DNA from: a virus
DNA length: 34,550 bases
Reading direction: 5' to 3' (one strand)
IMG/VR virus record: IMGVR_UViG_3300027917_000107
The notes below the pieces were generated by a model, which saw only the letters and a program-made list of their open reading frames with translations, was not told the DNA's origin and ran no database searches. Positions 12,650 through 13,769 of this stretch are shown piece after piece. Made by a program: the position numbers and the translations under genes. Positions within the stretch are counted from its first letter, which is position 1, and the number at the start of each line of letters is the position of its first letter.

Positions 12650-12912
12650 ACGCTGCCGAGAAGGCAGAGGCCGTGCGGGAGAGGATCCTGGCGGAGCGGC
12701 CGGAGTGCTGCATCCCTGGGAAGTCCAGCCGGTGTCTACCATCCGAAGACGGCAAGACCTGCGCATGTGGTCACCATCACATCGAGATCGGGTGGCTCAG
12801 GTCCATGGCAGCGGTGTTTGGCCGCCGGTTGGTGCAGCACCGCACCACCGAGGTCGAGGACAAGGCAGAGCTCGCCAAGTTCATCCGGGAGCACGACATG
12901 GAGAGTCCTTGA
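12646..12912 (+). CDS. hypothetical Cys/His-rich protein (88 aa)
   Basis: ATGA overlap. Confidence 0.6.
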   Translation: MNAAEKAEAVRERILAERPECCIPGKSSRCLPSEDGKTCACGHHHIEIGWLRSMAAVFGRRLVQHRTTEVEDKAELAKFIREHDMESP

Positions 12913-13769
12913 GCTTCCAGGTGATCGACAGCTTCCGCGGCGACCACTACTTCCTGTCCAACTTCGGAGAAGGCAAGGCGGCCTACGACGGCGTGGTCTA
13001 CCCCAAGTCGGAGTACGCCTATCAAGCGGCCAAGACCCTCGACCTTGAGGACAGGGAGTGGATTCGTGTGGCTCCCAGCCCGTATGAGGCTAAGCAACGC
13101 GGGAAGCAGGTGGACCTTCGACCAGGCTGGGAGGAGATGAAGGTCGGGGTGATGACGGAGATCGTCCTCGACAAGTTCAACCGAAGCCTCAATCTCTGGC
13201 TTGCGCTCGAGGCCACGGACGAGGCCGAACTCATCGAGGGCAACTGGTGGGGGGACACCTACTGGGGCCGCTGCAAGGGCAAGGGAGAGAACTGGCTCGG
13301 GTACATCCTGATGTACGCTCGTGCCCGTGGATGGACGCGGGAGCTCCCATTCCTACCGAGGATGATCGGCTTCACGGGGACGCGCGAGGGAATGACCCAC
13401 CGTCAGAAGGACGGGGTGTGGAAGCTCCTCAACATCGCCGCTACGCAGGAGGACGACCTCGTCTTGGTCCACGGGGACTGTGTCGGGGCCGACAAGGAAG
13501 CCCACCACCTCGCTGTCATCGAGGGCTACCAGCATTTCATCCTGCCCTGTGACATCGAGTCCGCCCGCGCGTACCGCAAAGGCCTCGTCGTGCTGAAGCC
13601 GCAGCGACCGCTGGTGCGCAACAGGCAGATCGTGGACAGCTCCCACATGCTCATCGCCACTCCAGGAGGAGAGGAAGAAGCCCAGCCTCGCAGTGGAACC
13701 TGGGCTACGGTGCGCTACGCCAGGCGGGAGCAGGTGCCGAGGATCGTCCTTCAGCCTCACGCGGACTGA
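12909..13769 (+). CDS. NADAR (YbiA/DUF1768) – SLOG (DUF2493-like) fusion protein
   Basis: The N-terminal half (FRGDHYFLSNF … YPKSEYAYQAAK … EAKQRGK … GENWLGYILMYAR) matches the NADAR signature. The C-terminal half (LVLVHGDCVGADKEAHHLA … ATPGG…SGTWATVRYA) matches SLOG/DUF2493. The TTG start at 12909 overlaps the upstream TGA, with SD 'ggagag' 4 nt upstream. Confidence 0.7.
   Translation: MSFQVIDSFRGDHYFLSNFGEGKAAYDGVVYPKSEYAYQAAKTLDLEDREWIRVAPSPYEAKQRGKQVDLRPGWEEMKVGVMTEIVLDKFNRSLNLWLALEATDEAELIEGNWWGDTYWGRCKGKGENWLGYILMYARARGWTRELPFLPRMIGFTGTREGMTHRQKDGVWKLLNIAATQEDDLVLVHGDCVGADKEAHHLAVIEGYQHFILPCDIESARAYRKGLVVLKPQRPLVRNRQIVDSSHMLIATPGGEEEAQPRSGTWATVRYARREQVPRIVLQPHAD

Follow-up and report, generated by a model that had tools for sequence, protein, structure and literature searches.

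The open reading frame (ORF) at 12909..13769 (+) encodes a genuine two-domain phage protein, in which an N-terminal NADAR domain and a C-terminal SLOG Rossmannoid domain are joined by a short flexible linker. It lies in a 34,550-nucleotide stretch of viral DNA, referred to here as the window. Both domain matches are far above chance, and each domain occurs once in the window. The architecture has already been catalogued in phage genomics and is untested at the bench; this protein is a new example of it, not a new kind. Comparative genomics has already reported architectures of this type, which limits the value of the protein as a discovery; its usefulness is as a clean, compact, and well-modeled candidate for biochemistry.

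The protein bears on what sets NADAR substrate specificity. NADAR enzymes are now known to reverse ADP-ribosylation of bases on DNA and RNA, and phage T4 beats DarTG1 with a NADAR protein. A natural NADAR-SLOG protein makes it testable whether a tethered nucleotide-binding domain supplies targeting or a second catalytic step, and the answer would also offer a first route to the function of a large family of phage SLOG domains that is so far unannotated.

The gene and its genomic setting

The gene is a single uninterrupted frame of 286 codons plus a TGA stop codon, with a TTG start, and its 286-residue product (P0001) is the exact counterpart of this ORF in the protein database. A ribosome-binding-site-like GGAGAG, read directly in the sequence, is located at 12900..12905 (+), 3 to 5 nt before the start codon. 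Upstream is an ORF of 88 codons (12646..12912, +) that encodes a Cys/His-rich protein with no assigned function, for which Pfam and PHROG searches returned zero matches. The TGA stop of this upstream ORF shares bases with the TTG start at 12909 in the sequence TTGA, an overlap that suggests translational coupling of the two genes. A 40-kb ENA contig of 100% identical sequence, possibly assembled from the same data, carries independent calls of both genes, which agree on the start codon and on the overlap of 4 nt. The annotated start is supported by homologues that begin at the same position. A longer ORF of 354 codons from GTG 12705 was rejected: about 200 nt of it would lie over the upstream ORF, which is the better-coding of the two, and the homologues and two gene callers all begin at 12909. 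At the other end of the gene, a palindromic hairpin, GGACTGAGCTCAGTCC followed by TTCTTCGTCA, spans 13763..13778 (+) and overlaps the stop codon. It is possible, though the indication is weak, that this hairpin is a bidirectional terminator between the NADAR-SLOG gene and the convergent minus-strand ORFs at 13772..14274; the region contains three such hairpin sites, where 1.7 would be expected.

Three proteins (P0236, P0237, and P0258) are full-length, collinear homologues at 36 to 44% identity, and they are the sole collinear cluster representatives among the best 150 of 18,053 matches in a search of 1.84 billion representatives. More broadly, NADAR is joined to at least three SLOG families, and in both domain orders: the family of the present protein (P0111), DUF2493-type SLOG domains (P0265, P0327, P0333, P0326, and P0384), and DprA-like SLOG domains (P0051, P0272, P0458, and P0061). 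The collinear homologues, together with these parallel fusions, indicate that the fusion is real, and, judged from the same comparisons, it is kept by selection. The two-domain protein proposed at this locus by an earlier, sequence-only reading is thereby borne out.

The chance that the fusion is an artefact, whether from adjacent NADAR and SLOG genes joined through a frameshift or an error in sequencing or assembly, or from a wrong start codon, is practically nil. Most homologues of either half are standalone proteins and no fusion was found in cultured phages, as such an error would predict. Against this, the frame is uninterrupted, the linker is just about 10 residues long, the same sequence occurs on the ENA contig (albeit possibly from the same underlying data), and the three collinear homologues are diverged in sequence and derive from other samples. 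The collinear homologues effectively refute an artefact. A genome-contig search with the fusion profile returned NADAR patterns only, with neither a full-length fusion nor a clue to the host; its best 80 loci, mostly from Planctomycetota and other metagenome-assembled genomes (MAGs), covered residues 1 to about 140, with a few extending to 170 to 190.

The window holds a one-strand gene array with genes for a C5 methylase, GIY-YIG, PolX, and a ThyX-like domain, in addition to TSCPD and a PAPS-reductase-like protein. A neighboring protein of 898 residues has homologues solely in uncultured phages of 460 to 735 kb, and the source is probably a large phage in a tailed-phage context. When 12 kb was compared with cultured phages by megablast, there were zero matches, and PADLOC reported nothing meaningful in the window. 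Among about 60 ORFs selected from the window, a Pfam scan detected no genes for ART, Macro, Nudix, or DUF4326 proteins and none for NAD salvage. Among the homologues, P0236 is flanked by genes for a radical SAM protein and an SNF2 helicase, and P0237 is flanked by genes for ThyX, RlaP, a 2OG-Fe oxygenase, and an HD hydrolase; no conserved partner gene is common to the two loci.

The NADAR and SLOG domains

The NADAR domain spans residues 4 to 140 (12918..13328, +), as defined by Pfam, alignment to YbiA, and Foldseek. The sequence-only reading had recognized this half as YbiA-like NADAR and pointed to PF08719 and a structural model as checks, and both agree with it. PF08719 matches residues 13 to 139 with 68 bits (E 1.5e-18; cutoff, 35.1), phrog_1017 matches this half at E 2e-36, and E. 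coli YbiA (2B3W) matches it by sequence at E 2e-17. In the full-length model this half adopts the YbiA-like alpha+beta fold, and Foldseek aligns the model to 2B3W (E 2e-11; 38% identity; TM 0.74 on the target) and to the Phytophthora NADAR-ADPr structure 8BAU (E 2e-7).

Four motifs characterize the domain, namely, SEYAYQAAK (with Glu35 and Lys42), LRPGW (residues 70 to 74), LIEGN (with Glu110), and WGDTYWG (residues 114 to 120). SEYAYQAAK and LIEGN align to SEHYFQAQK and LVEH of YbiA. Mutagenesis of the E. coli C7 NADAR identified E88, K95, and D171 as catalytic, corresponding to E43, K50, and E125 in Phytophthora (PMC11543638). As judged by alignment, the N-terminal domain is a YbiA-type NADAR in which the catalytic Glu35 and Lys42 and the YbiA-type Glu110 are all present as an intact set. 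Because position 10 of the PF08719 profile already falls at residue 13, and because phrog_1017 matches from residue 5, there is no room for an additional N-terminal domain. The YbiA subfamily is marked by a last-strand residue that is Glu, rather than Asp or His, and by the absence of an N-terminal extension.

Two other NADAR types were considered and rejected. The DarT1-associated antitoxins (BC4488 family/DarG1) have Asp where this protein has Glu, and they carry a basic N-terminal extension that is missing here; nor was there an ART-family match, as for an adjacent DarT1, among the approximately 60 window ORFs selected for the Pfam scan. For the gp30.3/AdfN type, the subfamily definition (PMC11125620) calls for His at the last-strand position, which here is Glu110.

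A linker at residues 141 to 150 (13329..13358, +), predicted to be flexible, connects the two domains. The alignment for the structure model was anchored on the collinear homologues; it sets part of the first SLOG strand beneath the N-terminus of NADAR, but the model is confident for each domain (mean pLDDT, 93.0; below 50 at residues 145 to 147). With a full-length pTM of just 0.60 and a disordered linker, a composite active site is unsupported.

The SLOG domain covers residues 151 to 283 (13359..13757, +) and belongs to a family that has no Pfam model and is sister to DUF2493/YAcAr. Its motifs are GFTGTR (residues 154 to 159), Gln166, HGDCVGAD (188 to 195), Pro213, Arg220, RNRQIV (237 to 242), Glu257, and RSGTWATVRYA (261 to 271). 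Structural modeling predicts a three-layer alpha/beta sandwich with a five-stranded parallel sheet, as in known SLOG structures. GFTGTR follows strand 1, HGDCVGAD follows strand 2, and P..E..RSGTW follows strand 4; these loop motifs are invariant or nearly so in 109 family members and are retained here, and all the family-invariant residues are intact and sit in these loops. The model thus shows a SLOG Rossmannoid that is well folded and has its invariant residues at the classical nucleotide pocket. Cys191 is invariant in the family, and Asp190, Glu257, and Arg261 are conserved.

The sequence-only reading had labeled this half SLOG/DUF2493, of which the superfamily stands and the narrower label does not. 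PF10686 (YAcAr/DUF2493) scores 12.7 bits with the full protein and 16.1 bits with the domain alone, below its cutoff of 28.2, and even weak matches occur in just 43 of the 109 family members. A profile-profile comparison by hhalign nevertheless links the family to DUF2493-type domains (97.9%; E 6e-13), one of which, P0384, has a precomputed PF10686 match. On these comparisons, the family is a large sister of DUF2493, homologous at the profile level, with at least 1,351 database clusters and at least 552 IMG/VR loci.

Membership in two better-known families was rejected as well. For DprA/Smf, PF02481 gives 14.7 to 17.7 bits against a cutoff of 29.6, TIGR00732 gives 19.9 against 191, and the PDB DprA profile matches the domain at an E value of about 0.1. 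For LOG, the RSGTWAT motif places Thr267 where PGGxGTxxE has its catalytic Glu (aligned by eye), and the Pfam family (Lysine_decarbox) gave zero matches at E values up to 1 with either the full protein or the domain. An HMM alignment to Helicobacter pylori DprA places the motifs G-T-R, GxD, RNR, and SGT parallel to its ssDNA-contacting motifs, a parallel judged by eye. The domain has a pI of 8.0 (family median, 8.2).

Beyond the window, the Pfam census of 135 ORFs flanking SLOG loci yielded generic replication genes (AAA, ligase, helicase, and PolA), with a single NAMPT and a single KptA. All 16 Mycobacterium records recovered with the full-length query are mycobacteriophage records in which the SLOG domain occurs, 16 in number as well, and these probably lack a detectable NADAR, which argues that the SLOG domain has a function of its own.

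Do both domains simply act on nucleotide pools? One could imagine an N-glycosidase for house-cleaning or for host-nucleotide degradation, in which each domain splits the bond between base and ribose in small molecules resembling ribonucleotides, modeled on E. coli YbiA acting on riboflavin intermediates and on LOG and PpnN acting on (modified) NMPs, and serving a large phage in its metabolism of nucleotides and modified DNA. The top NCBIfam match is TIGR02464, an equivalog_domain model for riboflavin-intermediate N-glycosidases, but its 60.7 bits fall under the cutoff of 73.7, and riboflavin genes are absent among the ORFs scanned. E. coli YbiA is the nearest solved structure, and LOG and PpnN are among the structural neighbors of the C-terminal domain, but the catalytic motif of LOG has not been retained. 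Genes for nucleotide metabolism and DNA modification are plentiful in the window (TSCPD, ThyX-like, C5 methylase, and PAPS-reductase-like), and the P0237 homologue adjoins genes for ThyX, a 2OG-Fe oxygenase, and an HD hydrolase, but recurrent DUF4326 and DprA-like fusions point toward ADPr or nucleic-acid contexts. We regard this role as quite unlikely.

Possible roles in conflict over ADP-ribosylation

The suggestion of the sequence-only reading that the protein processes NAD/ADP-ribose substrates, possibly against host ADP-ribosylation or NAD-based defenses, is consistent with the literature and plausible. All tested NADAR subfamilies, including the YbiA type, hydrolyze guanine-ADPr (PMC11543638), both on DNA (PMC11125620) and on RNA (PMC11833690), and some, again including the YbiA type, hydrolyze cytidine-ADPr (PMC12945103). 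The T4 NADAR AdfN neutralizes DarTG1 in vivo, and its DNA de-ADP-ribosylation is the only experimentally shown role of a phage NADAR (PMC11825919). The C7 NADAR, which bears the extension, is more active on nucleic acids than the T4 NADAR and those of the YbiA type, a difference that the authors credit to nucleic-acid binding (PMC11833690). Viral SLOG-NADAR fusions, catalogued computationally by Iyer et al. in 2021 (PMC7824862) and 2022 (PMC9503650), are predicted to process ADPr derivatives.

By analogy with these systems, we tentatively favor a counter-defense factor against ADP-ribosylation, in which NADAR strips base-linked ADPr and SLOG engages the nucleotide or ssDNA portion of that substrate. 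In an infected cell, a host ADP-ribosyltransferase resembling DarT1, YarT, or ScARP would modify guanine, and possibly cytosine, in the DNA or RNA of the phage, and NADAR would hydrolyze the N-glycosidic link that holds ADP-ribose on the base. SLOG, tethered to it, would bind either an ssDNA nucleotide, as in DprA, or the adenylate/ADP-ribose part, as in ThsA and LOG, raising affinity and specificity. In doing so, it might stand in for the basic N-terminal extension, the nucleic-acid grip of DarT1-associated NADARs, which the "naked" YbiA-type domain lacks.

Several observations run counter to a counter-defense role. No ADP-ribosyltransferase or other ADPr-network gene lies nearby among the approximately 60 window ORFs scanned. 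Of 80 viral IMG/VR loci of the standalone SLOG family, none has a NADAR gene within 4 kb. A pI of 8.0 is only mildly basic and weak for a DNA binder, and the model (pTM, 0.60) has no fixed domain interface. As for pure binding, the conservation of Cys191, Asp190, Glu257, and Arg261 suggests that SLOG could be catalytic. Moreover, NADAR activity in vitro does not guarantee counter-defense, given that neither E. coli YbiA nor the T4 NADAR rescued cells from DarT1 toxicity in one in vivo assay (PMC11125620).

A more specific version of the counter-defense proposal, which we hold to be rather doubtful, is that SLOG is a substrate-recruiting module: it would read a flipped-out ssDNA nucleotide or the adenylate of DNA-linked ADPr and pass the lesion to a minimal YbiA-type NADAR. 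The repeated, independent fusions, which involve three SLOG families and both domain orders, would then be convergent ways of making an efficient de-ADP-ribosylase for nucleic acids out of a weak, "naked" NADAR. The abundant standalone phage SLOG family, in turn, would read or process ADP-ribosylated or otherwise modified nucleic acid, rather than act as a DprA-like recombination mediator.

The model of Iyer et al. (2022) instead has both domains as enzymes that degrade soluble ADPr derivatives of host immunity, such as the cADPR isomers of TIR/Thoeris systems or ADPr-1''P, thereby blunting immune signaling; SLOG would cut the 1'-ribosyl-adenine bond and NADAR another N-glycosidic ribosyl bond. 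We consider this somewhat unlikely here. The cited NADAR studies report activity solely on base-linked nucleic-acid ADPr and on riboflavin intermediates, and on no cADPR-type molecule. By motif alignment, Thr267 replaces the glutamate of the LOG motif PGGxGTxxE, and there is no Pfam LOG match. Thoeris-related and other NAD genes are also absent among the window ORFs scanned, and PADLOC was empty.

An earlier proposal by the same group (Iyer et al., 2021) is a signal "toggle," in which SLOG makes an ADPr-derived signal from NAD+ and NADAR destroys it, allowing the phage to steer host behavior. This seems highly improbable. The cited papers contain no report of a YpsA/YAcAr-type SLOG making such a signal, the same authors later preferred degradation (PMC9503650), and opposing activities on one polypeptide with no regulatory element are hard to rationalize; the genomic context here is also unsupportive.

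Relation to known systems

The closest parallels are the viral NADAR-SLOG (YpsA-like/YAcAr) fusions described by Iyer, Burroughs, Anantharaman, and Aravind, which likewise join these two superfamilies in a single polypeptide and are set in a tailed-phage context. They share companion fusions (DUF4326 and DprA-like) and a predicted role in an NAD+/ADP-ribose conflict network. In the present protein, however, the SLOG domain belongs to a sister family with no Pfam model, not to YAcAr/DUF2493, and the order is NADAR and then SLOG.

Among NADAR proteins, E. coli YbiA (2B3W; 38% identical in the structural alignment) and the YarT-associated YbiA of Chondromyces crocatus are likewise "naked," with a last-strand Glu like that in LIEGN, and their subfamily hydrolyzes guanine- and cytidine-ADPr in vitro. 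Both are standalone, cellular proteins, whereas the present protein is phage encoded, has SLOG at its C-terminus, and falls short of the equivalog cutoff of TIGR02464. T4 gp30.3/AdfN is also a phage-encoded NADAR and serves as a functional model (PMC11825919), but it is a His-type, single-domain protein rather than a Glu-bearing (YbiA-type) NADAR fused to SLOG.

Within the SLOG superfamily, identity is 12 to 26% to Bacillus subtilis YpsA (2NX2), the DprA Rossmann domain (4LJK/4LJR and 3MAJ), ShosA (8ZVA), LOG, and the SLOG domain of ThsA (7UXS). The present domain lacks the extra domains of DprA, the catalytic Glu of LOG, and the SIR2 partner of ThsA, and it bears a signature of its own, HGDCxGAD with an invariant Cys and RSGTWxTxR. 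The sole cultured-phage members of its family are mycobacteriophage genes annotated as "DprA-like DNA processing chain A" (e.g., Farewell gp78 and Marker gp42), which are 33 to 41% identical over more than 83% of the domain. These are standalone proteins of about 125 to 145 residues, with no detectable NADAR in their records; the Farewell gene lies among early/replication genes, and the Marker gene adjoins the integrase.

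A recurrent fusion of NADAR and SLOG domains

The gene at 12909..13769 (+) has an unbroken translation of 286 residues followed by TGA. Its TTG start codon, at 12909, overlaps the TGA of an upstream 88-aa ORF (12646..12912) as TTGA and is preceded by GGAGAG at 12900-12905. This start is supported by a public protein entry that is exactly the 286-aa product and comes from a contig of 34,550 nt, which makes the window an entire JGI contig, by a gene call with the identical start and 4-nt overlap on a 40,155-nt ENA contig, and by the collinear homologues, whose first position matches that of the protein; the coordinates proposed in the sequence-only reading (12909-13769) are thus correct. 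An in-frame GTG at 12705, which would yield 354 aa, was rejected because its frame would overlap the upstream ORF by ~200 nt. The ENA contig (ERZ27279932, k141_7297266) is 100% identical to the window across 20.8 kb, with window 2909..23769 corresponding to 1..20861 of the fetched piece, and is possibly not an independent data set. Judging from coordinate offset rather than sequence, it should reach ~6 kb past the 3' end of the window.

In a word-indexed search, each match besides the query itself spanned just one half or so of its length, and no NADAR-SLOG fusion was found among cultured phages. When 1.84 billion representatives were scanned exhaustively with phmmer, three collinear full-length homologues appeared among the best 150 of 18,053 matches listed: P0236 (288 aa, 44% identity), P0237 (294 aa, 39%), and P0258 (299 aa, 36%). 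Because these database proteins come from other samples and differing gene contexts, the idea that the fusion is an assembly or frameshift artefact can be set aside with near certainty, and the architecture is conserved in homologues.

Related proteins show further combinations. P0111 carries NADAR and a SLOG domain of this family in reversed order; P0265, P0327, P0333, P0326, P0384, P0061, and P0052 join it to a DUF2493-type SLOG domain in either order; and P0051, P0272, and P0458 join it to a DprA-like one. Moreover, P0045 couples DUF4326 to the same SLOG family, and P0399 contains DUF4326, NADAR, and SLOG. Local HMMs flagged a SLOG-type domain in 16 of 352 NADAR-containing proteins, and three found by eye (P0051, P0272, and P0399) bring this to ~19 of 352 in what is a biased sample. 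Multiple fusion types in both orders indicate that the NADAR and SLOG superfamilies have been joined repeatedly.

A YbiA-type NADAR domain tethered to a SLOG domain

The N-terminal NADAR assignment of the sequence-only reading is borne out by Pfam (PF08719, residues 13-139, E 1.5e-18, 68 bits where the gathering score is 35.1). A full-length AlphaFold model (pLDDT 93.0) agrees, as Foldseek matched it to E. coli YbiA 2B3W at E 2e-11 with 38% identity and to 8BAU, a Phytophthora NADAR in complex with ADPr, at E 2e-7. PHROG 1017 also matches this domain (2e-36), and 2B3W is the sole solved structure reached by sequence (E 2e-17). Alignment with YbiA revealed a complete catalytic set: the protein keeps the SEhxxQAxK helix with Glu35 and Lys42, LRPGW at 70-74, LIEGN of the last strand with Glu110, and WGDTYWG at 114-120. 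Mutagenesis has established that the equivalents of Glu35 and Lys42 are essential for guanine-ADPr hydrolysis, and the last-strand residue is a subfamily marker, being Glu in YbiA, Asp in DarT1-linked BC4488, and His in T4-like phage NADARs (PMC11543638). Glu110 therefore marks the domain as YbiA-type, without an N-terminal extension. The riboflavin-intermediate N-glycosidase model TIGR02464 scored 60.7 bits, short of the 73.7 that it requires; that the protein is a nucleotide-pool N-glycosidase seems improbable.

Among the best-scoring relatives, none of them in the window, P0235, P0238, and P0379 (277-288 aa) carry NADAR duplicated in a single polypeptide. These tandem proteins recall the triple-NADAR SNA-3 of C. 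elegans (PMC11125620).

The C-terminal domain exceeds the threshold of no Pfam family, as DprA (PF02481) scored 14.7-17.7 bits against 29.6 and YAcAr/DUF2493 (PF10686) scored 12.7-16.1 against 28.2. PHROG 289 ("GTP-binding domain") matches it at 2e-9. Querying with residues 144-286 retrieved at least 1,351 protein clusters, mostly standalone proteins of 130-150 aa with no precomputed Pfam domain. When members were scanned singly, weak matches appeared to DprA (56/109), YAcAr (43/109), LDcluster4 (15/109), and cpYpsA (14/109), all of which are SLOG families. Profile-profile comparison with the DUF2493-type domains of other NADAR fusions, including P0384, which has a precomputed PF10686 match, gave 97.9% probability (E 6e-13, 114 columns). 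Taken together, the Pfam, member-scan, and profile-profile results identify a SLOG domain, whose family sequence comparison places beside DUF2493/YAcAr, as its sister in the YpsA-like group. The DUF2493 label proposed earlier therefore holds at the level of superfamily and sister family, while membership at the PF10686 threshold does not.

The protein retains every (near-)invariant element of the family alignment, namely, GFTGTR and Gln166, HGDCxGAD with its invariant Cys191, Pro213, Arg220, RN..IV, Glu257, and RSGTWxTxR. These residues sit in the loops following strands 1, 2, and 4, the usual nucleotide-binding position in Rossmannoid domains, and they show a complete SLOG nucleotide pocket. 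In the family alignment of this domain (window 13359..13757), most members have IHPP and RAFC, with a His and a Cys, where the fusion protein and P0045 show ILPC and RAY(R); these positions may make up a metal-binding or redox site whose ligands differ among members.

The model contains two well-folded domains, and a pTM of 0.60 with pLDDT of <50 at 145-147 indicates that no fixed interdomain interface is predicted. The two domains are linked by a flexible tether.

Outside the fusion, the SLOG family occupies at least 552 standalone loci in IMG/VR, flanked in the sampled cases by genes of generic replication functions, and none of 80 sampled loci had NADAR within 4 kb. These results indicate that the family acts alone in most phages and has been coupled to NADAR occasionally but repeatedly. 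Cultured-phage members are solely 16 mycobacteriophage records, labelled "DprA-like DNA processing chain A" or hypothetical, whose genes lie among replication genes or adjoin an integrase. Since these are all 16 of the Mycobacterium matches of the full-length query, they appear to lack NADAR. In Marker (PP978797.1), from a group of temperate mycobacteriophages, the standalone gene (3498..3932) lies between integrase and lysis genes near the immunity region, a location where prophage-expressed genes are often found. In phage Farewell, unlike Marker, it lies among replication genes.

Genes surrounding the fusion

Plausible genes of the window are almost all on the + strand, with frequent stop/start overlaps, and include one copy each of NADAR and SLOG. 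Two genes ahead of the fusion, ~400 nt upstream, is a standalone TSCPD domain protein (12061..12507, +; Pfam E 3.4e-14), a domain normally found at the C terminus of class II ribonucleotide reductases. Directly 3' are two small convergent ORFs (13772..14274, -; 86/65 aa and 109 aa), neither with a family match; in the latter, the N-terminal part resembles a coiled coil and a C-terminal segment is hydrophobic (AAILASTVSGVVVWLV). A 177-aa protein (15006..15539, +) with polymerase beta thumb (E 1.3e-23) and palm fragment (E 2.7e-5) matches is a putative miniature PolX; the ENA contig carries a shorter, 121-aa call.

An 898-aa ORF (17006..19702, +) looks like a major vault protein on a phage-like contig, based on MVP_shoulder (residues 556-676, E 1.2e-20) and Vault_3 vault repeat (E 1.7e-6) matches; PHROG and PDB sequence searches returned none. 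Its relatives in the phage collection are solely LR756500, LR756501, and LR756503, uncultured "huge phage" genomes of 462-735 kb (34-35% identity over 88-96% of length), and so the contig probably derives from a large phage.

A 151-aa ORF (19786..20241, +) in which the H-x-T motif occurs twice (KHMTIAF, PHITISH) may encode a small 2H phosphoesterase; its match to the fungal tRNA-ligase CPD domain was weak and under the cut-off (E 0.003), and a PDB sequence search found nothing. Members of that family are associated with the processing of 2',3'-cyclic phosphate and of ADPr>p. A GIY-YIG endonuclease (~20300..20594) is followed by a stretch of genes for DNA modification or topology (21487..25547, +): a C5 cytosine methylase (21487..22395, +; E 2e-37), a topoisomerase-like PHROG (22403..23461, +; E 1e-21), DUF5983 (~23461..23754, +), and a PAPS-reductase-like PHROG (24582..25547, +; E 7e-21). 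A 798-aa ORF (26664..29060, +) matches ThyX/Thy1 (E 5.8e-8) solely in its C-terminal 140 residues, the other ~630 having no family match. G+C content is 0.75 at 1..1000 and 0.70-0.73 at 30000..32000, versus ~0.62 elsewhere; GC3 is ~0.9 in the ORFs at 29663..30754 and 30893..31855, which lack family matches, and a long antisense ORF (29666..32344) stays open across this region.

Possible function and relation to known NADAR-SLOG proteins

Among SLOG proteins, DprA binds ssDNA nucleotides, ThsA binds 3'cADPR, and LOG cleaves adenine-ribose bonds. We consider it quite possible, though short of probable, that the fusion protein is a counter-defence de-ADP-ribosylase, whose NADAR domain would cut ADP-ribose off bases while the SLOG domain would grip a nucleotide portion of the substrate. 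All tested NADAR subfamilies, YbiA-type included, hydrolyse guanine-ADPr on DNA and RNA (PMC11543638, PMC11125620, PMC11833690), certain NADARs, YbiA-type among them, hydrolyse cytidine-ADPr (PMC12945103), and T4 AdfN defeats DarTG1 (PMC11825919). "Naked" YbiA-type and T4 NADARs have lower nucleic-acid activity than the extension-bearing DarT1-linked NADAR (PMC11833690). Among the ~60 selected window ORFs scanned, there was no gene context supporting the de-ADP-ribosylase role, and ART, Macro, Nudix, DUF4326, sirtuin, and NAD-salvage genes were not found. The invariant Cys/Asp/Glu/Arg pocket of the SLOG domain could be catalytic, which counts against a SLOG domain that only binds. A rather doubtful alternative, which follows the prediction of Iyer et al. 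2022 (PMC9503650), is that both domains jointly degrade soluble immune signals derived from ADPr, and the signal-toggle role put forward by Iyer et al. 2021 (PMC7824862) is very unlikely.

NADAR-SLOG as an architecture type has already been described computationally in both of those studies. Compared with the catalogued fusions, the protein differs in that its SLOG half comes from a sister family without a Pfam model and its NADAR is of the minimal YbiA type, and these are modest twists on a known architecture. Its value is as a compact candidate with a confident model, suited to asking what NADAR gains from a SLOG partner.
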